From Dictyostelium discoideum (Eukaryota), in the NCBI GenBank assembly GCA_000004695.1, contig CM000153.2:4640001-4704000 (forward strand): 64,000 nucleotides of DNA, given 5' to 3'. This document shows, in pieces, positions 2,679 through 42,884 of this stretch. Numbering within the stretch: position 1 is the stretch's first letter; every line of letters starts with the position of its first letter. Position numbers and translations under genes: made by a program. Under the pieces are notes generated by a model. That model searched no databases. It saw only the letters and a program-made list of their open reading frames with translations, and was not told the origin of the DNA.

Positions 2679-4379
2679 ATGTTTCGAATAATTAAAAATG
2701 TTAATAAATTATTAATAAATAATAATAATAGTTATTATAATAATAATAGTAGAAATTTACAAATTAAAAATTATTTTGCATCATCTAAAAAGGAAATAGG
2801 TGAAATTATTGAAAAAAGGATGGATAGAGGAAAAATAAAAGAAAGGAAAAAAACCAAATTTGTAAGTCAAGCATATAGAAGTATAATAGAAAGAAGAGAA
2901 GAAGAGGTTGTTATTATTGATAAAATAAGGATGGATACAGGAGAAATAAAAGAAAGTCAGACAAATTATACAAGTGTTCCAGAAAGAGGAGAAACAGAGG
3001 ATATTGCTAATGATGAAAAAAAGTCAAATTCACCCAAATCATTACATATTACAGATTTAATAGAATTTTGTAATACACATAATCAAGAGATTGAACAAAA
3101 TTTAAAAGATAAATCAAAGAAACCAATGGCATTATGTTTTGCATACAATGGCTCCAAATATTATGGATCATCGTATTCTTTTGATATCAGATTTCCAGCA
3201 ATTGAAAACCTAATAGAGAAATCCTTAATTAGAAATGGTCATATAGCATTGGAGAATATTGGTAATTTAAAAAGAATAAAGTTAAGTAGAAGTAGTAGAA
3301 CTGATAAAGGTGTTCATTCAGTATCGACTGTTATTTCAGCATTTCTATTAATTGACAAAGAAACAGAGAGACTTGCCCAATTTGGCACGCCACCACAATA
3401 TTTCATTGATAATATTAATCGTTATTTACCATCTGATATAAGATTAATTTCAGCGACAAAACCAAGTCGTACATTTAGAGCAAGACCAGCATCCAAAAGT
3501 AGAGTTTATAATTATTTAGTACCAATGGATCATTTAAAAGATATTTCAATCGATCGAATGAATAGCATACTTTCAAATTTCATTGGTACTTCTTCTTTCC
3601 ATAATTACACTTATCAACGTTTTACTTATCTTGATAGTAATACATTAAAGAAATTATCAAAAATTAATGATACTCAAGATGAGAATGAAAATAATGACGA
3701 TGAGGAGGATGAGGAGGAGGATGATGAAGAAGATGGTAATGATAATACAAAAATTGATATTGAAAAAGAAGTTGAAGAATTAGAGAAATTAGAAAATAAA
3801 AAAAATATAGAAATAGATAGATTGGCTGAAAGTGAATTATTTAGAAAGAATCCAGTAAATGTTAGAACAATTATGAATTTTTATGTTGAAAAAGAAACTG
3901 TACTATTTGAAGGTAAACAATGGTATAGATTCGTTGTAGTTGGTGATTCATTTTTAATGTATCAAATTAGAAAAATGATGGGTTTCTTCCTTTCAGTTGT
4001 TAAAGGTTATCAAAATGAGATAGGACTCCAATTATCTTTGAAATCACCATTTTCAATCTGTTCTCCAATTTCACCTCCTTTTCCTTTATTTTTATATGAT
4101 GTTAATTTTCCAAGGGAAAAAATTTTACTCCCAGTATCCAGACAAATACAAAATGAATTTTTAAATTCTAAATTAATGCCACATCTCCACAAAATAGAAA
4201 ATGAAACTAATCAATTCTCTGAATTTTTTAATCAATTATCAACTTTTAATTTCCGTTTAGATGATATTGATCAATTAATAATATTAAATAAAGAATTTCA
4301 TGAAAAAATTGAACTAAAAAAAGCAGAAAGAGAAAAAAGAATAGAAGATTATAATAATAATTATAATAATAATAATAAT

Positions 4380-4456
<77 letters not shown>

Positions 4457-4526
4457 TAATAATTATAATTATAATAATAATTATAATAATATTTATAATA
4501 ATTATAATAATTATAAGCGTAAATAA
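2679..4526 (+). CDS. tRNA pseudouridine synthase of the TruA/Pus1-Pus3 family, with a long C-terminal poly-Asn tail.
   Basis: A 615-aa intronless ORF containing the TruA catalytic signature SRTDKGVHSVSTV (RTDxGVH) and surrounding TruA-like core. The C-terminus is an N-rich low-complexity region (AAT/AAC run 4340-4500). Confidence 0.8.
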
Positions 4527-8920: not shown

Positions 8921-8950
<30 letters not shown>

Positions 8951-8951
<1 letters not shown>

Positions 8952-9433
8952 TGAAATTACTATTTGGATTATTTATATTTGTTATAATTTTCTCAGCAAT
9001 TAATTCTCAAAATATTGTTCAAAGTCCATTTAATTATTTTGAAATTTCAAATGCGTTTTGTGGAAATGTAATTACAACATATCAAATAAATGCAGAAAAT
9101 AATGGTTGTCTTAGATCATGTGAAGATACCAATGTATCAGCCAATTTTGTTAGAATAGTTCAAACAACAACCAATAATAATACTTTTACTGCCACAGAGT
9201 ATACTGATTCCACTTGTACAAATTTACCAGCTACCAATGGTCAAACATTTACATTCACATGTCAATATGATAATAATCAAGTTACACTTGATAATGGTCA
9301 AAGAGTAATATGTTATGATTTAAATACAAAAGCTCCAATTCCAAAGAATGTTAATGATAGTTCAGCATCAAGTAGATTAATTATTAGTTGTTCAATTTTA
9401 TTCCTTGGTTTCATTATTGCTTTATTATTATAA
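8951..9433 (+). CDS. PsA-like secreted/GPI-anchored protein, a paralog lacking the PTVT spacer.
   Basis: A 160-aa ORF with signal peptide MKLLFGLFIFVIIFSAINSQ, conserved Cys spacing and NTFTATEYTDSTC..QTFTFTC resembling the PsA N-domain, and a hydrophobic C-terminal tail (LIISCSILFLGFIIALLL). Confidence 0.6.
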
Positions 9434-15552: not shown

Positions 15553-16260
15553 TTATATTATTATTAACAATAATATTATTGTTAATAATAATAATAATAA
15601 ATTTAATTTATTAATTTTTTTAAAAAATAATGATGGCGGTGATGATATTGATGTTGATAAACTATTAAATTGAAAATGCCTAATTTCTTTTAAAATTATT
15701 GAATTTGATTTAAATGATTTTATATTTCTATTATCACATGCTTTACAATTTTCATTACATGATTTAAAATAAATTATATCACCCTCTTCTGAACAATAAT
15801 ATTTTTTATTACCTTCAAGACAAGTATTATTTGAAAATGATTCAACTGTTGTAACTTCTTTTGATAATTTTATAACATAATTACATAATCCATCCAATAG
15901 TATTGGGGAGGTTGTATTTGAAATATTTATAATTACTGATGAATTATCATCATATTTAATACACTTATTTAAGTCATAGAATATTATTGGATTGTAATTA
16001 TCGCAATGGGAATCTTGACTAATGAATATGTTGGGTGAGTATCCTAATCTTTCTATTTCACCTTTATTTATATCACCAACTTTCATATATAACCCATCCT
16101 TTTGACATGGTGTTATGGTTTTTATAAATGTTGCATTACCTTTACATTCGAAATTATTATTTTCATATACAAAAAATGAAATCTTATATCCATTTATTTT
16201 TATAACAAATATTAATAATAATAATATAATATTATATATAAAATTTATTTTAATCATCAT
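15553..16260 (-). CDS. Secreted Cys-rich protein with a C-terminal hydrophobic (GPI-like) tail. It is a paralog of the gene at 30086-30910.
   Basis: A 235-aa ORF with a signal peptide, conserved Cys pattern (CKG...C..C...CNENCKAC) and a hydrophobic C-terminus. Alignable to the 30086-30910 protein. Confidence 0.6.
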   Translation of the reverse strand: MMIKINFIYNIILLLLIFVIKINGYKISFFVYENNNFECKGNATFIKTITPCQKDGLYMKVGDINKGEIERLGYSPNIFISQDSHCDNYNPIIFYDLNKCIKYDDNSSVIINISNTTSPILLDGLCNYVIKLSKEVTTVESFSNNTCLEGNKKYYCSEEGDIIYFKSCNENCKACDNRNIKSFKSNSIILKEIRHFQFNSLSTSISSPPSLFFKKINKLNLLLLLLTIILLLIII

Positions 16261-17115
16261 TCATTAATTAAAAATTGACAATAAATAATTAATATTAAAA
16301 ATAAAAATAAAAATAAAAATAAAAACAAAAAATAAAAATAAAAATAAAAATAAAAATTATATTTGAAAAAAAAAATAAATAAATAAATTAAATAAATTAA
16401 ATAAATAAAAATAAAAAAAAAAAAAAAAAAAAAAAAGTGTATGTGTGTGTCTATTTTAAAAAATTATTTTTATCACTCTGTAAAAATATTTTTAATTCAT
16501 TCCAAAACTCATAATTAACAAAAGATAAAAAATTTAGATATGTATATAAAAATAAAATTTATTATTTAAATAATAGATTTCAATTTATTGGCAAAATAAC
16601 CTCTTTTTTTTTTATATTAAATAAAAAAAAAAAAAAAAAAAAGAGTATTTATATTAGGTTGTGATGGTAATAAATCAAAAAAACTTATTACTACATAAAA
16701 ATTATTAAATTTTATTTTTTAATTGAAAAATTGTTCTTTTTTTTTTTTTTTTTTATTTTTTATTTTTTTTTTTTTTTCCCCAATACTTAATTTAATCTAA
16801 ATTGGTGAATTTAAAAATAAAAATAAAAATTAAAAAAAATTAAAAAAAACACCTCACTCATTTTTTTGGGTGTGGAAATGAGATTTAATCTTATTATTTT
16901 TAATTTTTTTTTATTTAAAAAAATTAAATTTGGGAAAATAAAAAAAAATTAAGCACATTAATATTTTTTTTTTTTTTTTTTTTTATTCTTATTTTATTTT
17001 TATCCTTTTTGAACACTAAATTATTATTTTTTTTATATATATCAAACACACACTTCACACACAAACACAAACACCATTTTAAAACATAACATTTCTTTTT
17101 TCCTCTCACCACGCA

Positions 17116-17529
17116 ATGTTTTCTCCCAGGGATAGTTTCAATTTCTTTGATGACCCAACTTTTGGTATTAACCTCCAACCTCTCACAACGACGTATGTTG
17201 AAGTGGAAGATTTGGAAAATGATATCAAAAGATTATCAAGTCTGTTCTATGAAGAGACTGTTCATCTTAGTTATAAATTACCCAATTCTTTAAAGAAGTC
17301 TCGAAATTTCTTACAACCATACCTTAATATTAAACCTATTAAACATTCAAGACAAAACTATACACAATTAACAAACTATATAGACCAATCAAAAGACTTA
17401 GTTCAAGAGTGTAAGTCTTGTTTTAGTGATAATGTTGGTGTCAATGATATATTAAGGGATATACTGCGTGATATGGATAGGTTAAAGGTACATTATTGTT
17501 CAGATGGTGGTATATTTTCATCTTTATAG
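17116..17529 (+). CDS. Small uncharacterised protein (137 aa), copy 1 of a five-member tandem family. Its GC content is atypically high for the locus.
   Basis: Intact ORF MFSPRDSFNFFDDPTFGINLQPLTTTYVEVEDLENDIKR...KVHYCSDGGIFSSL. It is preceded by a CA-rich element (17044-17075) and is 90-95% identical to copy 2. Confidence 0.6.
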   Translation: MFSPRDSFNFFDDPTFGINLQPLTTTYVEVEDLENDIKRLSSLFYEETVHLSYKLPNSLKKSRNFLQPYLNIKPIKHSRQNYTQLTNYIDQSKDLVQECKSCFSDNVGVNDILRDILRDMDRLKVHYCSDGGIFSSL

Positions 17530-17850
17530 TTAATACTATAAAAATGGATTTATGCAATCATATTTTAATTTTTACTATTTATATATTCTTTATTTCATTC
17601 TTTTTTTTTTTTCTCTTTCTCTTTTATTTTTGTTTTTTTTCTTTTGTGTAACAAAAATACAAACTTCCAAAACTAAAAAAAAGTAAAAAAACAAAATCAA
17701 ACAAAATCAAACAAAATCAAACAAATAATTTAAAAATCAAATACAAAATCAAAAACAAAGGTAACAGAAAAAATGAAAAAAAAAACAAAATGAAATAAAA
17801 AATATATAAATAATAAAAAAAAAGTTTATCAAACAATACAAATTAAAAAT

Positions 17851-17914
17851 ATCCTTCCTTCTAATCAACTTTCAATGTATGAATATACATTGAAGGTTGA
17901 TTAGAAGGGAGGAT
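17851..17914. repeat. Near-perfect inverted repeat (hairpin) with about 30-bp arms and a 4-nt loop. It is followed by a short second palindrome (aatgtatcggatacatt) and a conserved 200-bp block C.
   Basis: Left arm atccttccttctaatcaactttcaatgtat against reverse complement of the right arm atcctcccttctaatcaaccttcaatgtat gives 28/30 matches. The same element recurs at 20296-20360, 27512-27575, and (degenerate) at 22620 and 25378-25458. Confidence 0.8.
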
Positions 17915-18459
17915 ATTCAAATCAAATCCCAATGTATCGGATACATTCCTTAGTTAGAATGAAGGGTTTTCTGTTTAGTTTAAAAGAAAAGTGAAATTCT
18001 GTTGCAATATCGATATCTGGTGTCTTAGAGTCAAACTATTTTCTCAATGGCATTCCAATCAATTTCCAAAATACATTCCAGTTTTTCAATCAAAGAAATT
18101 CTATAAATAAACCATTTTAATCCTCTTAAAAAATATTGTTTTGATTTTTTTTTTTTTTTTTTTGATTTTTTTTTTTTTTTAGTTAAATTACTCCTATTAT
18201 TTAAAAAATATTTTTTAACTTCCTTTTATCATTTTTAAAATAATAATTATACCAAAATGTATTTTTCATTTTATAATAGTGAAAATAAAAAATCATTATT
18301 GATGGAATATATTTTAAAAAATGAAAGGACAAAACTAATCCATTTTTTTTTTTTTTTTTTAAGAATATTGGTTTTTTTTTTTTTTTTTTAATCTTATTCA
18401 TAATAAATAGAATAAAATAATAAATACTAATATCTTTTTTTTTTAATTATATCTTTATA

Positions 18460-18718
18460 TTTTTTAAAATTAAATGGTGAACTAATAACATTGCAAATCA
18501 AGGCAAATGCAAATAATGTATATGAAAGTGGTGATCAATGTGGTAATTCAACATTTACTTCATTTAATTACAATAATAATAATGTTAAAACATTTATTAC
18601 AATGTCACCTCATCCTGGTAATGTAGTTGAATTTTATAAATATTATACAAATTTTAAAATTAATGGAATTAATTTCAACAATTTCACAAAATGTAAATTA
18701 AATAAAAAAATTAAATAA
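18460..18718 (+). pseudogene. Decayed 5' fragment of the beta-helix surface-protein gene (array unit 1).
   Basis: Similar to 28530-28930 (GELITLQINANGNNVY.SGDQCGNSTFT ... KTFIT.SP..GNVVE.YK...FKINGINFNNF) with an internal deletion. Confidence 0.6.
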
Positions 18719-18740
18719 AATAATAATAATAATATAATAA

Positions 18741-18827
18741 AATAAAATTAAATAAAATAAAATAAAATAAAATAAAATAAAATAAAATAAAATAAAATAA
18801 AATAAAATAAAATAAAATAAAATAATA
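18741..18827. repeat. (AAATAA)n microsatellite.
   Basis: Visible hexanucleotide run after the unit-1 surface-gene fragment. Confidence 0.9.
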
Positions 18828-19531
18828 CAATTGTAACTTCTTTTGATAATTTTATAGCATAAATTAAAATTAAAATAATTCTTGAAAAAAAAAAAATTAA
18901 ATAAATATATAAATAAATAAATAAAAATAAAATTGAAAATAAAAAGTGTATCTGTGTCTATTATAAAAATTAATTTTATCAATCTGTAAAAATATTTTTA
19001 ATCAATTTTAAAACTCATAATTAACAACAGATAAAAAATTAAGATATGCATATATATAAAAAAAAAATTATTATTATTATTAAATAAAAGATAACAAATT
19101 AACCTTCTATTTATTACTATATAAAATTTTTTATTTTACATGAATAATTGGTTTTTTTTTTTTTTTTTTTTATTTTTTTTTTTTTTTGTTTAATATCAAG
19201 ATTGGTGAATTTAAAAATAAAAATAAAAATTTAAAAAAAATTAAAAAAAAACACCTCACTCATTTTTTTGGGTATGGAAATGAGATTTAATCTTATTATT
19301 TTTTTTAATTATTTTTTATTTTTATTTAAAAAAATTAAATTTGGGAAAAAAAAAAAAATTAAGCACCACATTAAGGGTTTTTTTTTTTTTTTTTTTTTAA
19401 TTCTTTTTTTATTTTTATCCTTTTTGAACACTAAATTAAATTAATTATTATTTTTATATATATATATATATATATCCAACACACACACCATTTTTAAAAA
19501 ATAACATTTCTTTTTTCCTCTCCACCACGCA

Positions 19532-19945
19532 ATGTTTTCTCCCAGGGATAGTTTCAATTTCTTTGATGACCCAACTTTTGGTATTAACCTCCAACCTCTC
19601 ACAACGACGTATGTTGAAGTGGAAGATTTGGAAAATGATATCAAAAGATTATCAAGTCTGTTCTATGAAGAGACTGTTCATCTTAGTTATAAATTACCCA
19701 ATTCTTTAAAGAAGTCTCGAAATTTCTTACAACCATACCTTAATATTAAACCTATTAAACATTCAAGACAAAACTATACACAATTAACAAACTCTATTGA
19801 CTATGCAAAAGTCTTTGTTCAAGAGTGTACGGCATGTTTTGATGATAATGTTGGTGTCAATAATTTATTAAGGGATATACTGCGTGGTATGGATAGTTTA
19901 AAGGTGCATTATTGTTCAGATGGTGGTATATTTTCATCTTTATAG
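19532..19945 (+). CDS. Small uncharacterised protein (137 aa), family copy 2.
   Basis: Intact paralogous ORF. The upstream (TA)n and CA-rich element (19476-19490) are conserved. Confidence 0.6.
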   Translation: MFSPRDSFNFFDDPTFGINLQPLTTTYVEVEDLENDIKRLSSLFYEETVHLSYKLPNSLKKSRNFLQPYLNIKPIKHSRQNYTQLTNSIDYAKVFVQECTACFDDNVGVNNLLRDILRGMDSLKVHYCSDGGIFSSL

Positions 19946-20592
19946 TTAACACTATAAAAATGGATTTATGCAATCATATTTTAATTTTTACTATTTATAT
20001 ATTCTTTATTTCATTCTTTTTTTTTTTTTCTCTCTTTTATTTTTGTTTTTTTTTGTTTTTTTTTCTTTTGTATATAACAAAAATACAAACTTCCAAAACT
20101 AAAAAAAAGTAAAAAAACAAAATCAAACAAAATCAAACAAAATCAAACAAAATCAAACAAAAAATTTAAAAATCAAATACAAAATCAAAAACAAAGGTAA
20201 CAGAAAAATTGAAAAAAAAAAAAAAAAAAAAAAAAAAATGAAATAAAAATATATAAATAATAAAAAAAAGTTTATCAAACAAAACAAATTAAAAATATCC
20301 TTCCTTCTAATCAACTTTCAATGTATGAATATACATTGAAGGTTGATTAGAAGGGAGGATATTCAAATCAAATCCCAATGTATCGGATACATTCCTTAGT
20401 TAGAATGAAGGGTTTTCTGTTTAGTTTAAAAGAAAAGTGAAATTCTGTTGCAATATCGATATCTGGTGTCTTAGAGTCAAACTATTTTCTCAATGGCATT
20501 CCAATCAATTTCCAAAATGCATTCTAGTTTTTCAATCAAAGAAATTCTATAAATAAACCATTTTAATCCTCTTAAAAAATATTGTTTTGATT

Positions 20593-20635
<43 letters not shown>

Positions 20636-20924
20636 TTCAATTACTCCTATTATTAAAAAAATATTTTTTAACTTCCTTTTATCAATTTTAAAATAATAAT
20701 TATACCAAAATGCATTTTTCATTTTATATAAGTGAAAATAAATAATCATTATTCATGGATTATATTTTAAAAAATGAAAGGACAAAACTAATCCATTTTT
20801 TTTTTTATTTTTTAAAATTTTGTTTTTTTTTTTTTCATCTTATTCATAATAAATAGAATAAAATAATAAATACTAATATCTTTTTTTTTTTTTTTTTTTA
20901 ATTTTAGCTTTAAATTTTTTAAAA

Positions 20925-21382
20925 TTAAATGGTGAACTAATAACATTGCAAATCAATGCAAATGGAAATAATGTATATGAAAGTGGTGATCAATGTGGTA
21001 ATTCAACATTTACTTATAATTCAATAAATGCAATTTCTTATTTTGAAACAATTAAAGTATATAATCAAACCTCAAAAATTTAAATTTATCCACATTGAAA
21101 TTACTTTAGATGACTCTTTATAAAATTGGTAATCCATTAATACTTTTTCAAAATAAAATTGAAATTTCGCCTTTAAATCAAAAATCTAAAAATGTAATCA
21201 TTGATGATTCTTCAATTAATAACAATAATAATAATAATAATACTAAAACATTTATTACAATGTCACCTCCTCCTGGTAATGTAGTTGAATCTTATAAATC
21301 ATATACAATTTTTAAAATTAATGGAATTAATTTCAACAATTTAACATTTACAATTGTAACTTTTGATAATTTTATAGCATAA
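20925..21382 (+). pseudogene. Decayed 5' fragment of the beta-helix surface-protein gene (array unit 2).
   Basis: Collinear with 28520-29000. There are in-frame TAA stops (for example ATT TAA ATT at about 21080). Confidence 0.6.
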
Positions 21383-22032
21383 ATTAAAATAAAAATAATA
21401 TTTGAAAAAAAAAATTAAATAAATATATAAATAAATAAATAAAAATAAAAATAAAAATAAAAAAAAAAGTGTATGTGTGTCTATTTTAAAAAATTATTTT
21501 TATCGCTCTATAAAAATATTTTTAATTCATTCCAACTCATAATTAACAACAGATAAAAAATTAAGATATGTATATATATAAAAAAAAAAATTATTATTTT
21601 TATTTAAATAATAGATAACAAATTAACCTCATTTTTATTACTATATAACAGTAAAAAATAATATTAACACTTTTTTTTTAAAAAAAAAAAAAAAAAAAAA
21701 ATAATAAAAAAAAAAACTGATCACTTAATTTTAGGTGAAAAAAAAAAATAAAAAATAAAAAAAAATAAAAAAAAAATATATATTTTGTTAAGGAATTTAC
21801 AAACAACAAAAAAAATTAATTTTTTTTTTTTTTTCTATTTTTTTTTTTATTTTTTTTATTTTTTTTATATTCACCTAAAATTTTTTTTTTTTTCTCATTT
21901 TTTTTTTTTTTTTTTTTTTTTTATAACACTATAATTAAATTAATAATAATAAAATAATAAAATAATTTAATTGTTTTTTTATATATCAAAAACACATATA
22001 TAATATTTTAAAACTCAAACTTTTCTACTACA

Positions 22033-22341
22033 ATGTCTTCTCAAGAAGGTGACCTTCCCCCTCTCAGCGATTACCCAGATGCAACTAAAGTGGATGAATT
22101 ATGGTGTAAAATCATTGCCCAATCAACTACTCCCCTTGAAATAACCAATTTATTGAACCAGTTTTCCCATTTCTTAAAGCCATGCCAAGTTAACTCACTT
22201 TCAAAGAACCCACAAACGAAAAAATTACTAGAACATTTAGAAAAGTGTAGGGGCCCATGTAATAATGATAATACCAACAATTTATTAAGCGATATGATAC
22301 AGAATGTCCAAAATTTAATTATATTATTAATGATCCCATAA
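22033..22341 (+). CDS. Divergent small-protein family member (102 aa), copy 3.
   Basis: It occupies the same slot in unit 3. It has weak but collinear similarity (CRGPCNNDNTNNLLSDMIQNVQNL versus CKSCFSDNVGVNDILRDILRDMDRL) and the same downstream flank (tatagttaactactataaa...). Confidence 0.4.
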   Translation: MSSQEGDLPPLSDYPDATKVDELWCKIIAQSTTPLEITNLLNQFSHFLKPCQVNSLSKNPQTKKLLEHLEKCRGPCNNDNTNNLLSDMIQNVQNLIILLMIP

Positions 22342-22949
22342 AGCAATAATAATTATATCATGTAATGGTATATTTTCAACTTTATAGTTAACTACTATAA
22401 ATATGGATTTATGCAATCACTATAGTTTAATTTTTATTATTTAAATTTTATTTATATAATATTTATTTCATTCTTTTTTCTTTGTTAACAAAAATACAAA
22501 CATCCCACACAATACAAAATCAAAAACAAAGATAAAAGAAAAACAAAAAAAATGAAATAAATAATATATAAATAATAAAAAATTAAATAATAAAAGTCAA
22601 ACAAATTAAAAATATGCTTTGATACATTCGTTTGTTACAAGGAGGGATTTTCTGTTAAATTTCGTTGCAATATCTGGTACCTTAGAGTCAAACTATTTTC
22701 TTGGTGTCATTCTAGTCAATTACCTAAATGTTTCCTGTTTCAATCAAAGAAATTCTCTAAATAAATTTAAAAACCTTACAAAAACTTTTTTTTTTTTTTT
22801 TTTTTTTTTATTTTATTTTATTTTTTTTTTTAATTTTAATTATCCATAATAATCAATCAAAACATTAAAAAAAAAAAAATAAAAAAAAATAAAATGATAA
22901 CATGTATATATATATTTTTTTAATTTTAACTTTTTATTTTTTAAAATTA

Positions 22950-23198
22950 AATGGTGAACTAATAACATTGCAAATCAATGCAAATGGAAATAATGTATAT
23001 AAAAGTGGTGATCAAAGTGGTAATTCAGCATTTAAATGTAATTCAATAAATGATGCAATTTCTTATTTTGAAACAATTAAAGTATATAATCAATCATTGA
23101 TGGCACCGATTAATAACAATAATAATACTATTAAAATATTTATAACAATATCACCTCTCCTCCTCTTGGTAATATGGTTGAATAAAAATAAAAAATAA
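22950..23198 (+). pseudogene. Decayed 5' fragment of the beta-helix surface-protein gene (array unit 3).
   Basis: ORF 22902..23198 retains the signal peptide and GELITLQINANGNNVYKSGDQSGNSAFKCNSINDAISYFETIKVYNQS. It then skips about 50 codons present in the full gene. Confidence 0.55.
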
Positions 23199-23745
23199 AA
23201 AGTGGTTGTGTATCAATCTTAAAATTTTATTTTATCACTCTGTAAAAATATTTTTAATTCATTCCAAAAATCATAATTAACCACAGATAAAAAAAATATA
23301 TTGTTTAAATAATAGATATTTTATTACCAATTAACCTCACTTATTTTGCTATATAAAAAGTGTTGATTTATATTATTACTTTAAAAAAAAAAAATAATAA
23401 CATTGGGATTTAATTTTATTTTTTACTCCAAAAAATTATCATTATTTTTTTTTTTTTTTTTTTTATAATATTAAATTAAAAAAAATAAATAAAATTAAAA
23501 AAACATGTTCTCTTATTTTTTTGGGTTAAAATGAAAATGAGATTTAATTTAATTATTTTTTTTTTCCACTCCCAAAATTTTTTAATTTTTTTTTATTTTT
23601 TTCATTTTTAAATTTTTTTTTTTTAGACACCATTTTTTTTTTTTTTCATTCCTTTTTTTATTTTCATCCATTTTGCACTATAATTATTATAATTATTTTT
23701 AAACACACACACTATTTTAAACATTTCTTTCCTTTCTTCCACGCA

Positions 23746-24138
23746 ATGTTTTCTACCTGGAATTTCTTTGATGACCCTCCTGGTATTAACCTCGAACCTC
23801 TCACAGCGACCTACGTCGAAGTGGAAGGGATAGAGAATGATATCAAGAGAGGATCGAGTCAATTCTATGAAGATACTGTTCATCTTTGTTTTAAATTACC
23901 CAGGTTTTTAAAGAAATCTCGCAATTTCTTACAGCCGTACCTTGATATTAAACATTCGAGACTAAACTATACACAATTAACAAACTCTATAGACTATTCA
24001 AAAGTCTTTGTTGAAGAGTGTATAGCATGTTTTGGTGATAATGTTGGGGTCAATAATTTATTAAAGAATATTCTGCGTGATATGGATAGGCTAAAGGTAC
24101 ATTATTGTTCAGATGGTGGTATATTTTCATCTTTATAG
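23746..24138 (+). CDS. Small uncharacterised protein (130 aa), family copy 4.
   Basis: Paralogous ORF (MFSTWNFFDDPPGINLEPLTATYVEVEGIENDIKR...KVHYCSDGGIFSSL) with a short N-terminal deletion relative to copies 1 and 2. Confidence 0.55.
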   Translation: MFSTWNFFDDPPGINLEPLTATYVEVEGIENDIKRGSSQFYEDTVHLCFKLPRFLKKSRNFLQPYLDIKHSRLNYTQLTNSIDYSKVFVEECIACFGDNVGVNNLLKNILRDMDRLKVHYCSDGGIFSSL

Positions 24139-24228
24139 TTAAAACTATAAAAATGGGTTTATACAATCATAGTTTAATTTTTATTCTTTATTATTACTAT
24201 TTCATTCTCTTTTTTTTACTTTCACCTT

Positions 24229-24285
<57 letters not shown>

Positions 24286-24419
24286 TTACAAAATACAAAC
24301 ATCACACACAACAAAAAATAACAAAAAACCAAAACAAAATCAAACAAAATCAAACAAAATCAAATATGAAGGGTAAAAGAAAAAATGAAAAAAAAAAAAA
24401 ATAATCAAAAAAGTCAAAC

Positions 24420-25560
24420 TATACAAATTAATAATATCCTTCCTTCTAACCAACCTTCATTGATATATCCGACGATAATACACCGAATGTTCAACAGAAG
24501 GAAGGAATTCAAATCTACCTCAATGTATCCTACGAGGATACATTGCGAGCTCCCAAGGATATTCAAATCTATCTCATTAGAATGAAGGATATTCAAATCT
24601 ACCCCAATGTATCCTATGAGGATACATTGCGAGCCCCCAAGGATATTCAAATCTATCTTCAATGAATCCGATGGATAATATTGGACACTCATTAGAATGA
24701 AGGATATTCAAATCAACCCCAATGTATCCTACGAGGATACATTGCGAGCCCCAAGGATATTCAAATCTATCTTCAAAGTATCCAATTGATAATACCTTGA
24801 AAACTAATTAGAATGAAGGATATTCGCCCCAATCTTCAATGTATCCGATAGGATACATTGAACCCTCTCAAGAAGGATATTCAATCTATCCTCAATGTAT
24901 CCAATTGATAATACCTTGAACACTCATTAGAATGAGGGATATTCAAATAAACCTTCGATGTATCCGATAGGATACATTGAACCCTCACCGAAATGATATT
25001 CAAATCTATCTTCAATATATCCAATGGATAATATATTGAACACTCAGTAGAAGGAAGGATATTCAAATCAACCTTCAATGTATCTGATACATTGAACCCT
25101 TATCAGAAGGATATTCAGTCTATATTCAATGTATCCGATGGATAATACATTGAACACTCAATAGAAGGAAGGATATTCATATCAACCGGTCAGATACATT
25201 GAACACTCATTAGAATGAAGGATATTCAAATCAATCTCCAATGTATGGGATAAATTCATCGGTTAGAAGGAAGGATATTTAATCAACCTTCAATGTATTC
25301 GATCGGATACATTTAACGCTCACTAGAAAGAAGGATATTCAAATCAATATCCAATGCATCCCATCGGCATACAGAACGCTCACTAGAGAAGGATATTCAA
25401 ATCAACCTCCAATGTATTGGATACATTCGTTGATTTGGGTCCTTCTCTAGTGAGCGTTCAATGTATGCCGATGGGATGCACTGAACGCTGATTAGAAGGA
25501 AGGATATTCAAATCAATGCCAATGTATGGAATACATTCATTGGTTAGAAGGAAGGATTTA
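24420..25560. repeat. 1.1-kb satellite-like tandem array of 55-60-bp units (an AB dimer of about 112 bp). Each unit carries the short palindrome CAATGTATCCGAT(A)GGATACATTG and a GGATATTCAAATC motif.
   Basis: By eye there are about 20 successive units. The array ends in a larger inverted repeat (cgctcactagagaagga ... tccttctctagtgagcg, 25378-25458). It sits where other units have the single hairpin. Confidence 0.8.
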
Positions 25561-25954
25561 AAAACAGAAAAAACTAAAAAAAGAAAAGTGAAATTCCATG
25601 TGCCTTGGAGTCAAACAATTTTCCCATTGAAATTCCAGTCAATTACCAAAATGCATTGCTGTTTCAATAAAGAAATTCTCTAAATAAATTTCAATACCAT
25701 TTTAATCCTCTTAATCAAAACAATAGTTTTTTTTTTTTTTTTAAATTAGTCCTTTTAGATTTTATTAAATAAAAAATATTTTTTTAACATCCATTTAATA
25801 ATAATAATTAAACCAAACGTATTTTTCATCATTAATAATAAAAAATGAAAAGACTATTTTTTTTTTTTATTATTATTCATATTAAATAGTATAAAATAAT
25901 AAATAATAATATCTTTTTTTTTTTAATTTTTAACTTTTTATTTTTTATAATTAA

Positions 25955-26450
25955 ATGGTGAACTAATAACATTGCAAATCAATGCAAATGGAAATAATAT
26001 GAAAGTGGTGACCAATGTGGTTATTCAACATTTACATGTAATTCAATAATTAATGCAATTTCTTATTTTAAAAAAATTAAAGTATATAATCAATCCTCAG
26101 AAATTTAAATTTATCAACCATTGAAATTACTTTTAGATGATTGTATATATAAAATTGGTAATCAATAATATTTTTTCAATATAATATTGAAATTTTGCCT
26201 TTAAATCAAAAATCTAAAAATGTAATCATTAATGATTCTTCAATTAATAACAATAATAATAGTATTAAAACATTTATTATAATATCACCTCCTGGTAATG
26301 TGGTTGAATCTTATACAATTTTTTAAACTAGTGGAAATAAATTCAACAATTTCACATTTACAATTGTAACTTCTTTAAATAATTTTTAACATAATTACAT
26401 AATCCATCCAATAGTATTGGTGGGGTTGTATTTGAAATATTTATTTTTTA
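25955..26450 (+). pseudogene. Decayed 5' fragment of the beta-helix surface-protein gene (array unit 4), fused to about 60 bp derived from the antisense strand of the Cys-rich gene at 15553-16260.
   Basis: 26382-26450 (aacataattacataatccatccaatagtattggtggggttgtatttgaaatattta) matches 15870-15935. The upstream part matches 28530-28960 with indels. Confidence 0.55.
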
Positions 26451-26464
26451 CATGTATAAAATTG

Positions 26465-26523
<59 letters not shown>

Positions 26524-26772
26524 CTAGTATGAATTTAAAATAAAAATTAAAAGCAATTAAATTAAAAAATCACTTCTCTCATTTTTTTAAGTTTTGTGTA
26601 AAATATCTCGAGATTTAATCTAATTATTTATTTTTTTTTTTTTTTTTTTTAATTTTTAAATTTTTTTTTTTTTTTTTTTCACCTTTAAATTTGATTTTTT
26701 TTTTTCATTCTCTTTGAATAAGACCTTACTGTTTTAATTTTAATATTTCTTTTTTTCCCATCCACCACGGCA

Positions 26773-27159
26773 ATGTTTTCTCCCGGGGATAGTTTCAATT
26801 TCTATGATGACCCAACTCTTGGTATTAACCTCCAACCTCTCACAACGACGTATGTTGAAGTGGAAGATATAGAGAATGATATCAAGAGAGTATCAAGTAT
26901 GTTCTATGAGGACACTGTTCTTCTTAGTTATAAATTACCCGAGCATTTAAAGAAATCACGTAATTTCTTACAGCCATACCTTGATATTAAACATTCAAAA
27001 TTAAACTATACACAACTAACAAACTCTATTGACTTTGCAAAAGTCTTTGTTAAAGAAGGTATAGCTTGTTTTGGTGATAATGTTGGTATCAATAATTTGT
27101 TAGAAGATATATTGCGTGATATGGATAGGTTAAAGGTATATTATATTGAAATAGTGTAG
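26773..27159 (+). CDS. Small uncharacterised protein (128 aa), family copy 5. The C-terminus is altered and it may be decaying.
   Basis: Paralogous ORF ending ...RLKVYYIEIV instead of KVHYCSDGGIFSSL. Confidence 0.45.
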   Translation: MFSPGDSFNFYDDPTLGINLQPLTTTYVEVEDIENDIKRVSSMFYEDTVLLSYKLPEHLKKSRNFLQPYLDIKHSKLNYTQLTNSIDFAKVFVKEGIACFGDNVGINNLLEDILRDMDRLKVYYIEIV

Positions 27160-27431
27160 CATATTTTCATTTTTATAGTTAACATTATAAAAATGGATTT
27201 ATGCAACAATATTTTAATTTTTATTATTATTTTAATTTTTATATTATTTATTTCATTCTTTTTTTTTCTTCTTTTTTTTCTTTATTTTTTTCTTTTTTTT
27301 GTTTGTACTTCCCACACAACAACAAAAAAAAAAAAAACAAAAACAAAAAAATAACAAAAGATAACCAAACAAAATCAAACAAAATCAAACAAAATCAAAT
27401 AAAATCAAAAACAAAGGTAATAGAAAAAATG

Positions 27432-27468
<37 letters not shown>

Positions 27469-28006
27469 AAATATATAATATATAAATAATAAAAAAAGTT
27501 TATCAAACAATATTAAAAATATACTTCCTTCTAATCAAACTTCAATGTTTGGATACATTGAAGGTTGATCAGAAGGAAGAATATTCAAATCCCAATGTAT
27601 CGGATACATTCCTTGGTTAGAATGAAGGGTTTTCTGTTTATTTTAAAGAAAAGCGAAATTCTGTGGCAATATCGACATCAGGTGCCTTAGAGTCAAACTA
27701 TTTTTTCAATAACATTCCAATCAATTTTCAAAATGCATTCCAGTTTTTCAATCAAGGAAATCCCCTAAAATAAATTTAAATACCATTTTAATACATAAAA
27801 ACTGTAACTTTTTTTTTTTTTTTTTTTTTTTTTAGTTCAATTACTCCTATTTTATTAAAAAATATTTTTTAACTTTCTTTTACCATACCAAATGTATTTT
27901 TCATTTTAAATGTAATGAAAATCATTATTTGAAGAATATATTTTAAAAAATGAAAGGACAAAACTTACCCAGATTTTTTTTTTTTGGATTTTCAAGAAAA
28001 AAAATA

Positions 28007-28037
<31 letters not shown>

Positions 28038-28189
28038 GAGTAAACTTTGTCTTTTTAAATTTTATTAAATAAAAAAATATTTTTTTAACATCTATTTAAA
28101 TAATAATTAAACCAAATTTATTTTTCATCATTAATAATAAAAAATAATTATTATTCAAACAATTTATTTTAAAATAAAATGGAAAGACG

Positions 28190-28410
28190 ATTTTTTTTGA
28201 GGTTTTATAGAAAACCTTCATTTTCTTGAAACACACAATTTTATTTATTTTTATTTTTATATTTTTAAATTTTTTTTTTTTGGGTTTTAAAGAAAAACCA
28301 TCTTTTTCCCAATAACTACAATTTTATTTATTTTTATTTTTATTTTTTTTAATTTTTTTTTTGGATATTTTCTTAAAAACAGACCATTTTGATTTTATTT
28401 TCTATTTTTT
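28190..28410. repeat. Tandem triplication of an about 85-bp AT-rich unit (..gg[gt]tttta[at]agaaaa[ac]c.tc.ttt...caattttatttatttttattttt..).
   Basis: Three successive similar units at 28195-28275, 28282-28360 and 28363-28410, immediately upstream of the full-length surface-protein gene. Confidence 0.5.
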
Positions 28411-28475
28411 TTTTTTTTTTTTTATTTTAATCATTCGATCGAAACATTAAAAAAAAAAAAAAAAAAAATTATAAA

Positions 28476-29993
28476 ATGATAAAATATATTTTTCCATTTT
28501 TTTTAATTTTAACTTTTTATTTTTTAAAATTAAATGGTGAACTAATAACATTGCAAATCAATGCAAATGGAAACAATGTATATAAAAGTGGTGATCAGTG
28601 TGGTAACTCAACATTTACATGTAATTCAATAAATGATGCAATTTCTTATTTTGAAACAATTAAAGTATACAATTAATCATCAGAAATTCAAATTTATCAA
28701 CCATTGAAATTACTTTTAGATGATGGTATTTATAAAATTGAAAATCAATTAATACTTTTTGAATATAATATTGAAATTTCACCTTTAAATCTAAACTCTA
28801 AAAATGTAACCATCGATGGTACCTCAATTTATAACAATAATAATAATAATATTAAAACATTTATTACAATATCACCTCCTACAGGTAATATAGTTGAATC
28901 CTATAAATCCCATAGCATTTTTAAAATTAATGGAATTAATTTCAATAATTTCACATTTACAATAATTTACATTTATAAAACTTATTTAAATGTAGTAGGA
29001 TCATTTGAAAATTGTAATTTTAATAATTTTAAAAGTGAATTTCCAATGTTTTACCTAATTAATAATAATAATAATAACATAATAAGTAATTTATATTATA
29101 ATATAAATTCATCATTTGCTTTAACGAATTGTTCAATGATCAGTAATTCAAATATAGGTTATAATTCATCTATAATTAATAGTAAAAAATTCAGTGTACT
29201 TATTTATCGATCAAAATTCCAATCAATTAATGAATGTAATAATTTTGGTTACTTTTATGATAGTTCTCGATTAACAATTTATAATAGTTCAATAAATAAT
29301 AATAATTGTAAAATAATTTTCAATATAAATAAAATTAATAAGTTAGATGTATTCAATACAAAATTTGAAAATAATAATGGAACAATATTCAATATTAAAT
29401 TTAATTCAAATGAAGGTTTAATTTCAATTAAAAATAGTAGCTTTATCAATAATTATGGTGGTAGTATTATTAATTTAGAATCAAATAATAATATTCCTTT
29501 TGAAAATTTAAAAAAAAATCCACAACTATTTAGAGACTCTACATTTTTTAATAATTCATTCAATGGAAATGGAAGTATAATTAATTCAATTGGTGCTTAT
29601 TTTATTGTTTCTGGTGAATTTGAAAATAATAAAGCATTAAATCACCAAGGTGATTTATTTTATTTACAAGATAGTTATTGTTTAATAGAAGATTCAAAAA
29701 TAAATCAAGTTAATAATTTACCAAGTGGTAAAGGTTCAATAATTTATTTACAAAAATCAGAATTAGAAATATCAAGTGGTAATTTCAAACTAGATGGTTC
29801 ACTTGTTTGTAATTCTTCAAAAATAAAACTTTTACGAAATACAATTGTTTTTAAACCTACTATTGACTGTCAAAATTGTACCTTTAATAACAATAATTAT
29901 TGTGAACTTAATTTTGGAATAAAAAATAAAATATCAATTCTTTTAAATTTAATAATATTATTACTATTATTATTATTATCACTATCAATATAA
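28476..29993 (+). CDS. Secreted/GPI-anchored beta-helix-like surface protein with polymorphic-membrane-protein-type repeats (FxxN and GG[AS]I-like). It is full length but carries an in-frame TAA at 28674-28676, so it is either a pseudogene or N-terminally truncated.
   Basis: ORF 28476..28676 (signal peptide MIKYIFPFFLILTFYFLKLNG...) and ORF 28704..29993 (TTG-initiated in the track) are in the same frame and separated only by the TAA. Repeats include FINNYGGSIIN and FNGNGSIINSIGAYF. The C-terminal tail is hydrophobic ([18 protein letters not shown]). Confidence 0.5.
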
Positions 29994-30085: not shown

Positions 30086-30910
30086 TCAAAGTGATATTAA
30101 TAAAATTAATAATGATACAATTGTTGAAATAATATTAATATTTAAAAAAGAACTAGATGAATCAAAGTCATTTGATGATGATGATGATGATAATGAAGAT
30201 AATTGAGAATCAAAAGAAAATGAAGGAGTTGTATAATTTACAGTTTGATTGATTGGATTTGAATCAGTGAGGAAATTAAACATTTTTAAGGATTTGAAAT
30301 TATCACAATTTGTACTATTTGAAGGATATGTTTGTTTTAAAATACATGATTGCGGTTTACAATCACTTGTTAAACATTCATAAACATTAATTGTCATACC
30401 ATCTTTACCAATACATTCTCTCCTTTGATATCTAATTGTTGTACTATTATTACTATTATCATTTGAAGACGTTTCTAATTTTAATGGATCATTACCAAAA
30501 TTCATTTTAATACATGTATTATTTCTATAAGAATTTATGAAATAATTTTCACAATTAAAATAATTTACTTCATTACAATAGGTATCTATATTTCTTGGAT
30601 TAAACTCTGAATCGTTTATGATATATTGATATGATGTACCATCAGTGTTTAAATAACATTGTTTGGTTTGTACAAATTCTGTTATATCTCGTTCGATTGA
30701 ACATTGATCTTGATTATTAACTTTTGTGATTGCTAATTTACCACCTGCTCCTTTTTGAAAGTATGAATATCTTGAACAATTTGTACTACCAATTGTAAAT
30801 AATAATTCTCCTTTACATAATATATTACTATATTTAATTATATGTACTTCAAATCCAATTATTTTTTTAATTAAAAATATAATAAATATAATTTTTATTA
30901 TTAATTTCAT
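30086..30910 (-). CDS. Secreted Cys-rich protein with Ser-rich stalk and C-terminal hydrophobic (GPI-like) tail. It is a paralog of 15553-16260.
   Basis: A 274-aa ORF with a signal peptide and Cys pattern shared with the 15553-16260 product. Confidence 0.6.
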   Translation of the reverse strand: MKLIIKIIFIIFLIKKIIGFEVHIIKYSNILCKGELLFTIGSTNCSRYSYFQKGAGGKLAITKVNNQDQCSIERDITEFVQTKQCYLNTDGTSYQYIINDSEFNPRNIDTYCNEVNYFNCENYFINSYRNNTCIKMNFGNDPLKLETSSNDNSNNSTTIRYQRRECIGKDGMTINVYECLTSDCKPQSCILKQTYPSNSTNCDNFKSLKMFNFLTDSNPINQTVNYTTPSFSFDSQLSSLSSSSSSNDFDSSSSFLNINIISTIVSLLILLISL

Positions 30911-39455: not shown

Positions 39456-40028
39456 GTGCCATGTAAAATATGTGGCCAAAAGGTATCACTTTCTGATATA
39501 AAAAATCATATTTTAGATGAATGTATACCAGTTTTTTTAGACATTTATGGTTTAAGGCATCAATTACCAAATCAAAATGAATATAAATCCCTATTGGAAG
39601 AAAACAATAAATTAAAACATGAAGTTTACATTTTAAAAGAAGAAAATTCTAAACTAAGATATATATCATCCTCAAACTCAACAATTTCATCAAGATCAAG
39701 CGATGTATATCCAGTAGTATCAAATGAAAATAATGATAGCGAATTAGTAAAAAAGGAACCAATAGAATATAAAGAGTCAGAAATTAAATTTTATGATGAA
39801 TTTATAGATGTAGATTTAAATAATGATGCTTCAACATGCTTTTTAGCACAAACTTTTAAAGAAAAAAGTGAAGATGATAAAATAATTAATGTAATACATT
39901 GTCCTAAACCAGCAAGGGGGAGTTTAATAATTGATGTAATCCATGGTAATTATTCTATCACAGTGTGTAAATTTACACATTTTACAGAAATGAAATCATT
40001 GGAGGCGATTAGAAAAATATTTATGTAG
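39456..40028 (+). CDS. Hypothetical protein with an N-terminal C2HC-type zinc-finger-like motif (CKICGQKVSLSDIKNHILDEC) and a coiled-coil region. Start uncertain: the track M is a GTG, and a 5' exon may be missing.
   Basis: A 190-aa ORF immediately upstream of the Harbinger-like transposase gene. It could be co-mobilised, and it has no Myb/SANT signature. Confidence 0.3.
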   Translation: MPCKICGQKVSLSDIKNHILDECIPVFLDIYGLRHQLPNQNEYKSLLEENNKLKHEVYILKEENSKLRYISSSNSTISSRSSDVYPVVSNENNDSELVKKEPIEYKESEIKFYDEFIDVDLNNDASTCFLAQTFKEKSEDDKIINVIHCPKPARGSLIIDVIHGNYSITVCKFTHFTEMKSLEAIRKIFM

Positions 40029-40134
40029 TTTCCAAAAGGTGTTGGAAACTACATAAATATTGAAATTCATATTGGTTATTGGTAATCCAGATGATTTTAT
40101 TTTTAAATGATCTGTACATTTAAAACCACATACA

Positions 40135-42788: not shown

Positions 42789-42884
42789 TGGAGAAGAAGG
42801 GTATCGATCCCTTTACCTTATGGAAATCTGATTATCGTTGCTGTTTATGCAAACCATACGCTCTACCATATGAGCTACATCCCC
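42789..42884 (-). tRNA. tRNA-Ala (anticodon UGC) with a 23-nt intron between positions 37 and 38.
   Basis: The minus strand reads GGGGATG TA GCTC ATATGGTA GAGC G TATGG TTTGCA [TAAACAGCAACGATAATCAGATT] T CCATA AGGTA AAGGG ATCGATA CCCTT CTTCTCC A. It has a 7-bp acceptor with G3:U70 (Ala identity; U6:U67 mismatch), a 4-bp D stem, a 5-bp anticodon stem, a 5-bp T stem, and an A box TAGCTCATATGG. The 5' half and T arm are near-identical to the human tRNA-Ala as recalled from memory. Confidence 0.8.

Follow-up and report, generated by a model that had tools for sequence, protein, structure and literature searches.

A young palindromic minisatellite in a tandem gene array of Dictyostelium discoideum, probably born by local inverted duplication

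Among the described systems that come close to the locus treated here, a tandem gene array on chromosome 4 of Dictyostelium discoideum AX4 some of whose units carry 70-nt hairpins or, in one case, a palindromic satellite, are the hairpin palindromes catalogued by Drewell et al. 2023 (PMC10111430). Two of the 1770 palindromes in their Table S1, at chr4:4657848-4657917 and chr4:4660294-4660363, are the two 70-nt hairpins of this array, referred to below as hairpins 1 and 2. These hairpins lie outside the 11 bisulfite-resistant sites of that study, and the paper, although it lists both 70-mers, does not describe the origin of the hairpins, the satellite or the variation between strains. The window that we analysed is the 64,000-nucleotide stretch chr4:4,640,001-4,704,000, to which all positions refer unless a chromosome is named, and within it the array units span 16300-28500.

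Several other classes of repeats share features with this locus. As in minisatellites, or variable number tandem repeats (VNTRs), the satellite consists of head-to-tail monomers of 49-63 bp, differs in copy number (18, 20 or 23), displays a higher-order alternation and turns over faster on its 5' side; unlike in those repeats, the monomer goes back to a 66-70-nt hairpin and is itself an inverted repeat in decay, and a secondary inverted duplication lies within the array. Fold-back at DNA breaks yields templated inverted duplications of 5-34 bp (PMC11724301), and short-range template switching has been described as well (PMC7954356). Our locus resembles such duplications and quasi-palindrome template-switch mutations in having an inverted copy of about 30 nt beside its template, a 4-nt loop and a single-copy state in relatives. 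It differs in that the product has been fixed, duplicated with a gene array and expanded to a satellite, the mechanism being read from the end product. With the microRNA (miRNA) and hairpin-RNA genes of Dictyostelium it has in common a near-perfect long stem, a recent origin and a probably transcribed region, whereas it is absent from the catalogue supplements searched and its stem-loop is shorter than typical precursors. Finally, miniature inverted-repeat transposable elements (MITEs) and the thug-type palindromic non-autonomous elements of Dictyostelium have a similarly compact palindromic shape, but the present element lacks a target-site duplication, has no copies elsewhere in the window or in the AX4 palindrome table, and arose where its right arm already stood.

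The window was compared with three D. discoideum assemblies, GCA_054883475.1 (AX4-like, and 99.3% identical to the window overall), GCA_054859385.1 and GCA_054859355.1. The orthologous locus was retrieved, via the neighbouring gene DDB_G0286589, from five other assemblies, these three and two 'cf. discoideum' genomes. The AX4 array comprises five units, namely four A-type units with the repeat and the hairpin-less unit 3. Strains L002 and L005 have three A-type units each and no unit 3, and the two 'cf. discoideum' genomes (L003 and L004) have a single unit of the unit-3 type, with neither array nor hairpin. From 5' to 3' a unit contains the 5' fragment of a large gene for a secreted protein, gene A, a T-rich tract, a (AAACAAAATC)n microsatellite, an A-rich tract, the repeat and a conserved non-coding segment; the gene-A units of AX4 are 2.4-3 kb long. 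Orthologous units diverge by 4-7% between D. discoideum strains, and the synonymous divergence (dS) of gene A is 0.09-0.24. The repeat itself takes the following forms in AX4:

17848-17917: hairpin 1 (left arm M', an inverted copy, 17848-17880; loop GAAT 17881-17884; right arm M 17885-17917)
17918-17970: second, decayed monomer of unit 1; its left arm is truncated, its core is the palindrome AATGTATCGGATACATT (17931-17947) and its right half, GATACATTCCTTAGTTAGAATGAAGGG, is of the ancestral type
20294-20363: hairpin 2, 100% identical to hairpin 1 and followed by a decayed second monomer at 20364-20416
22621-22648: single right-half module of unit 3 (GATACATTCGTTTGTTACAAGGAGGGAT), with no left arm and no hairpin (fold z = 0.1)
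24433-25557: palindromic minisatellite of unit 4, 1125 bp, made up of a degraded first hairpin monomer and about 18 monomers of 49-63 bp
25374-25459: long inverted repeat of 86 bp within the satellite, common to all three D. discoideum strains
27518-27585: hairpin 5, a decayed copy with stem core 27524-27579 and mismatches A.A, A.C and A.G; its second monomer lies at 27586-27633

Hairpins 1 and 2 are 70-nt palindromes with a 4-nt loop, and both of their positions that depart from Watson-Crick pairing are T.G on the + strand. The DNA folds at -28.6 kcal/mol (z = -12.2) and the + strand RNA at -47.7 kcal/mol (z = -13.4), with none of 200 shuffles folding as well in either case; for hairpin 5 z is -8.7. 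A palindrome scan of the whole window (arms of at least 18, at most 2 mismatches, loop of at most 10 and arm GC content of at least 0.2) gave four matches, three of which are hairpins 1, 2 and 5, and block shuffles gave none in 19 of 20 cases and one in the other. An earlier note on this DNA had claimed near-perfect inverted repeats with 30-bp arms and a 4-nt loop for every array unit. Re-folding bears out the complementary arms and the loop, the true arm of hairpins 1 and 2 being 33 nt, and the third hairpin, which had been put at 27512-27575, is present about 6 nt further to the right with three mismatches. The hairpin is not found in every unit, since unit 3 has the half-module alone and unit 4 begins its repeat with a hairpin monomer that has degraded. 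The small palindrome that had been noticed after the hairpins, AATGTATCGGATACATT, is indeed there, at 17931-17947, 20377-20393 and 27594-27610, and the monomer alignment identifies it as the core of the second, decayed monomer.

The motifs of the repeat are confined to 17851-27650 within the 64-kb window, and the two 70-mers are the sole entries for this element in the AX4 genome-wide palindrome table (Drewell 2023 Table S1, PMC10111430). A protein search for copies at other loci or in other species with the 92-amino-acid open reading frame (ORF) that reads through the satellite had no matches. A motif pattern scan of metagenome contigs returned four, all of them chance matches in unrelated bacterial contigs of 27-56% GC, and a search of the literature on the gene identifiers and the motif yielded nothing relevant.

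The satellite of unit 4 can be divided by anchors into 18 monomers in AX4, mostly of 49-63 bp; the exceptions are a 30-bp monomer and a composite of 111 bp with an inverted copy inside it. The periods found by Tandem Repeats Finder are 54-58 and 114-119 bp, the longer of which (about 114-119 bp) is also that of a partial alternation between two monomer types on the 5' side. The count is thus close to the approximately 20 tandem units described before, but a palindrome in each of them is not seen: a perfect palindrome of at least 7 bp is kept in 11 of the 18 and lost in the other seven. Many monomers keep perfect palindromes of 10-12 bp, and each has several GATA/TATC cores. The long inverted repeat suspected toward the end of the satellite was recovered at 25374-25459 (DNA fold -32.8 kcal/mol, z = -11.8), and it arose via inverted duplication of the preceding monomer. 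The monomers number 18 in AX4, 20 in GCA_054859385.1 and 23 in GCA_054859355.1, a copy-number polymorphism in which gains and losses are strain-specific; the 3' half of the satellite is collinear across the three strains and the 5' part turns over faster. With head-to-tail monomers in the range of 10-100 bp and a polymorphic copy number, this block is a minisatellite, or VNTR, and could be used as a hypervariable strain marker on chromosome 4. Neither the satellite nor the hairpins are an assembly artefact, because 24290-25640 is 100% identical, satellite included, in the separate AX4-like assembly GCA_054883475.1, orthologues of the hairpins occur in GCA_054859385.1 and GCA_054859355.1, and the 70-mers are in the list of Drewell 2023; their presence in independent assemblies, on which the earlier note had made its proposal depend, is thereby confirmed. 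Some satellite monomers of L005 have gained expanded tracts of C, 20 and 14 nt long (C20 and C14, at 4256-4275 and 4453-4466 of the reverse complement), which is unusual for a genome of about 20% GC.

The origin of the repeat can be approached through the register of its parts. Hairpins 1 and 5 align in register with the satellite monomers, so that the long hairpin is one intact monomer; the monomer layout is TTC(T/A)AATCAACCTTCAATGTAT, loop, GATACATTGAA..TTAGAAGGAAGGATATT. AX4 unit 3 and the 'cf. discoideum' genome L004 both read AAAAATATGCTCT-GATACATTCGGTGGTCAGAAGGAAGGAT-TTTTCTG, that is, the right arm alone, and then the conserved segment. This half-module state is the ancestral one, the direction of change from half-module to hairpin resting on one outgroup genome (L004) together with AX4 unit 3. 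As these two keep the right arm and the downstream flank in place, the left arm is secondary, copied locally in inverted orientation. It lies next to its template, and the ancestral single-copy state is on record, the combination expected of a templated inverted duplication. On balance we favour, as the probable reading, a young lineage-specific palindromic minisatellite that was produced by replication or repair errors and is neither a mobile element nor a selected structure.

In this scenario, the ancestral locus carried one module M of about 30 bp (GATACATT..AGAAGGAAGGAT) just 3' of an orphan ORF of the gene A type, as the surviving half-module states show. Later, on the way to D. discoideum, the module acquired an inverted copy, M', immediately on its 5' side, with a perfect hairpin unit of 33-bp stem as the outcome. 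Fold-back or a short-range template switch would be a likely route to it, and the AAAAT shared by both junctions would suit a template switch. The M'-loop-M unit was then duplicated head to tail, giving the two monomers of units 1, 2 and 5, and expanded in unit 4 to about 19 monomers by slippage or unequal exchange, with one further local inverted duplication at 25374-25459. The whole structure was copied along with the 2.4-3 kb gene-A units. Decay at the neutral rate followed, with the monomer number still shifting between strains. The locus reveals no new kind of element; it is, rather, a clean natural example of how a local inverted duplication gives a perfect hairpin, which seeds a minisatellite and is spread by segmental duplication. 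The earlier and the later state survive together, within AX4 as unit 3 and units 1, 2, 4 and 5, and between genomes as 'cf. discoideum' and D. discoideum.

The earlier note had reasoned that hairpins of this size should be either selected or recently formed. The parsimony ancestor of hairpin 1 of three strains is a perfect palindrome, and all five of the differences in its arms among these strains are one-sided and pair-breaking, at positions that differ by strain. The hairpin changes at a rate like that of its flanks: between AX4 and L002 its identity is 92.9%, while the ORF stands at 94.4%, the leader at 95.5% and the conserved segment at 96.4%, and between units 1 and 5 it is 88.2%, against 87.0-90.5% for the flanks (ORF 87.0%, conserved segment 88.4%). 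Since the ancestor was perfect, the changes are one-sided and pair-breaking and the rate is flank-like, the evidence favours the second of these alternatives, a recent formation of the hairpins. Neither sign of a selected structure, compensation or stems slower than their flanks, was found in the long stems, which lack compensated pairs across the three strains and two paralogous hairpins. A strand bias of the stem mismatches was also considered as a sign of selection at the RNA level and was rejected, the total being 4 G.T against 2 A.C on the + strand; the mismatches of hairpin 1 in AX4 and L002 are all T.G on that strand, and hairpin 5 adds A.C and C.A.

Some observations weigh against an entirely neutral history. 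The monomer at 24992 has a compensated double change in its short core palindrome (CAATATAT/ATATATTG), although quasi-palindrome template switching can yield such a change without selection. The estimate of the neutral rate for the hairpin is drawn from 3-8 substitutions on 70 nt, and the hairpin may be under weak constraint. Moreover, no part of the monomer is conserved as well as the motif at its junction, AAGGATATTCAAATC, 13 of the 18 satellite anchors being within one mismatch of GGATATTCAAATC; its conservation could reflect function instead of recent amplification, and the repeat may have gained a function later.

Transcription of the region bears on these alternatives. Units 1, 3 and 5 each have a Cufflinks model (CUFF_3818_1, 3819_1 and 3820_1; Rosengarten 2017, File S7), at 16974-18136, 21883-22786 and 26748-27960 of the window, which runs from the ORF across the site of the repeat and through the conserved segment. 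They were called antisense by Rosengarten et al. 2017, who caution about strand-switch artefacts. Because of this warning, and because 98.6-99.5% of the reads in the model regions are from the sense strand, we read the models as mirrors of sense mRNA and reject their interpretation as antisense long non-coding RNAs. The extents of the models and the read-strand counts make it probable that the hairpin sits in a 3' untranslated region (UTR) of about 600 nt. Thus, as a last element of the scenario, and with moderate support, gene A would have a terminal exon or 3' UTR of some length in which the repeat is transcribed on the + strand. The locus is also a concrete candidate to look for in existing small-RNA data.

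If so, the + strand transcript might fold and be cut by the Dicer-like DrnA or DrnB, and the locus would be a hairpin-RNA or proto-miRNA gene, whose left-arm RNAs, antisense to M, could act on the transcripts of all gene A paralogues, including the approximately 19 copies of M in unit 4. The stable + strand fold (-47.7 kcal/mol), in which both mismatches become G.U, and the RNA-seq-derived models that cover the hairpins are compatible with this. The hairpin would, besides, owe its origin to a transcribed stretch that was duplicated in inverted orientation, and new miRNA genes reportedly can emerge in this way (Allen et al. 2004). Among amoebozoan miRNAs, a long hairpin with near-perfect pairing is seen as a mark of recent evolution (PMC11014262). 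At 70 nt with a 4-nt loop the present ones are shorter than the usual Dictyostelium pre-miRNAs of 75-125 nt (PMC11014262). Their arm sequences are absent from the text-form supplements of the miRNA catalogues of Liao 2018 (PMC6161686) and Edelbroek 2024 (PMC11014262), and the stems show neither compensatory changes nor, at 4 G.T to 2 A.C transitions, a strand bias. At gathering score the sole Rfam match in the window is a tRNA elsewhere, with no miRNA family for the hairpins; in an E-value search their best matches are MIR6288, with 42.9 bits where 74 are required, and MIR5649, with 51 bits where 100 are required and with matches to both strands, and as these scores are far below the gathering thresholds and a match extends to both strands, we ascribe them to structure only. 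A hairpin-RNA gene is accordingly judged unlikely. The fuller version, a new hairpin-RNA gene in a 3' UTR with left-arm RNAs acting in trans on the paralogues and the 19-copy M array of unit 4 as target or sponge, strikes us as highly doubtful; were it true, one would be looking at a self-regulating dosage circuit at its birth, in a young tandem gene family of an amoebozoan.

The remaining alternatives concern DNA. A dimeric factor might bind the palindrome at the monomer core, CAATGTATC(N3-5)GATACATTG, or else the invariant sequence GGATATTCAAATC, and an amplified array of such sites could act on the transcription of neighbouring genes or on chromatin. The 16 occurrences of GGATATTCAAATC within one mismatch, all on one strand, the 10-12-bp perfect palindromes of many monomers and their GATA/TATC cores would be in keeping with such an array. 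However, the element is missing from unit 3 and from 'cf. discoideum', where the genes and the conserved segment are present, the palindrome has been lost in 7 of 18 monomers, the motif is not found elsewhere in the 64 kb, and conservation within a young tandem array is expected without function; we rate a binding array as very unlikely. The earlier note had also suggested a replication or recombination hotspot that drives the array; the palindrome might then be fragile, a cruciform or hairpin that stalls forks or causes breaks and so changes the copy number of the array. The A-type units do vary in number (four plus unit 3 in AX4, three in L002 and L005, one unit of unit-3 type in 'cf. discoideum'), the satellite is polymorphic in length, and the identity between units 1 and 2 reaches 100% across the hairpin and the next monomer. 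Yet tandem arrays change copy number without palindromes, and the identity of units 1 and 2 is a patchy mosaic over the whole unit that is not centred on the hairpin. Known fragile palindromes are far longer than 70 nt. A hotspot, for which nothing specific speaks, is thus improbable. The MITE-like remnant of the same note, a foldback transposon inserted 3' of the gene, has little beyond its shape in its favour, nearly all of the element being terminal inverted repeats. The hairpin-less state keeps the right arm in place, so that the left arm was copied locally; the flanks, ..ACAAATTAAA|AATATCC.. and ..GGATATT|CAAATCAAAT.., contain no direct repeat that could be a target-site duplication; all copies occupy one position in the paralogous units of a single array; and dispersed copies are lacking, the AX4 palindrome table (Drewell 2023) having just the two 70-mers and the metagenome matches being due to chance. 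The pre-existing right arm, the missing target-site duplication and the confinement to one array together rule out insertion of a mobile element, and this explanation has next to no chance of being correct. Our preference remains with a palindromic minisatellite that grew from a local inverted copy.

The other features of the array units are as follows:

17116-17529 (+): gene A (DDB_G0286585), a 137-amino-acid orphan ORF directly upstream of the spacer of hairpin 1
19532-19945, 23746-24138 and 26773-27159: gene A paralogues of array units 2, 4 and 5
22033-22341: diverged gene A relative of unit 3
17530-17847 (+): spacer between gene A and hairpin 1, with a T-rich tract, (AAACAAAATC)n at 17689-17725 and an A-rich tract, a layout repeated in units 2, 4 and 5
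17971-18136 (+): conserved non-coding segment of about 160 nt after the repeat in every unit, ending at AATAAA; transcript models also terminate here
approximately 20417-20582, 22649-22786, 25558-25720 and 27634-27800: other copies of the conserved segment, which is also present in L004

The ORFs of the gene A family encode 128-137 amino acids, and a homology search found no homologues beyond this array. The ratio of nonsynonymous to synonymous divergence (dN/dS) between diverged copies is about 0.3-0.5. The coordinates of DDB_G0286585 in Rosengarten et al. 2017, 4657116-4657529, match the position of the window ORF, and an intron is predicted at about 17517-17824. Every hairpin is preceded, 100-150 nt on its 5' side, by a perfect (AAACAAAATC)3-5 microsatellite (17689-17725, 20115-20162, 24332-24364 and 27367-27406), itself preceded by a T-rich tract, which in unit 4 is a run of 58 T. 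This layout resembles a Dictyostelium promoter with a 5' leader, and a separate short transcript may start there. The conserved segment downstream is taken as non-coding because every reading frame is interrupted in at least one copy and the copies share no start codon.

Units 1 and 2 differ in a mosaic fashion, with 0 mismatches over 292 bp (17086-17377), 17 in 113 bp inside the gene A ORF (17378-17490) and 9 in 17491-18160; the stretch of unit 2 that corresponds to 17086-17490 is 19502-19906. Such a pattern suggests patchwise gene conversion between the paralogues. Conversion centred on the hairpin was considered and rejected, the mismatches being distributed as a mosaic over the whole unit. 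In L003 (reverse-complemented, at about 8040) the whole stretch of about 250 bp that carries module M and the conserved segment is missing, and in L004 (reverse-complemented 8948-9205) the same stretch is flanked by AAATAAAAAATAT-like direct repeats. The difference between the two genomes could be either a microhomology deletion or a discrete insertion.

Gene models in two annotations draw coding exons from the hairpin or the satellite, and users of either should be warned of this. The C-terminus VYQTKQIKNILPSNQLSMYEYTLKVD of DDB_G0286587 is encoded by hairpin 2 (20270-20350), ACTFIT_005327 ends within hairpin 5 (27500-27571), the model ACTFIR_011498 uses the palindrome and the conserved segment, and in GCA_054883475.1 a gene of 115 amino acids is called inside the satellite (approximately 24721-25474). 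It is probable that these repeat-derived coding exons were annotated in error, owing to a GC content that is higher here than in the surroundings.

The genes that bracket the array, at 15553-16260 (-) and 30086-30910 (-), have similar products, small proteins that contain Cys and look secreted. In Pfam, DDB_G0286589 weakly matches CfaA_B_C, a counting factor-associated protein, below the threshold (E = 0.0035). The tRNA found by Rfam, at 42789-42884 (-), is 96 nt long, scores 49 bits and presumably bears an intron; ARAGORN in bacterial mode reports none. The fourth palindrome of the window scan, which is not of low complexity, lies at 40016-40061 (AATATTTATGTAGTTTCCAAAAGGTGTTGGAAACTACATAAATATT, with arms of 20 nt around a loop of 6 nt). 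It includes sequence of the stop codon that closes the ORF at 39456-40028 (+), and is likewise catalogued, at chr4:4680016-4680061, in Drewell 2023 Table S1 (PMC10111430).

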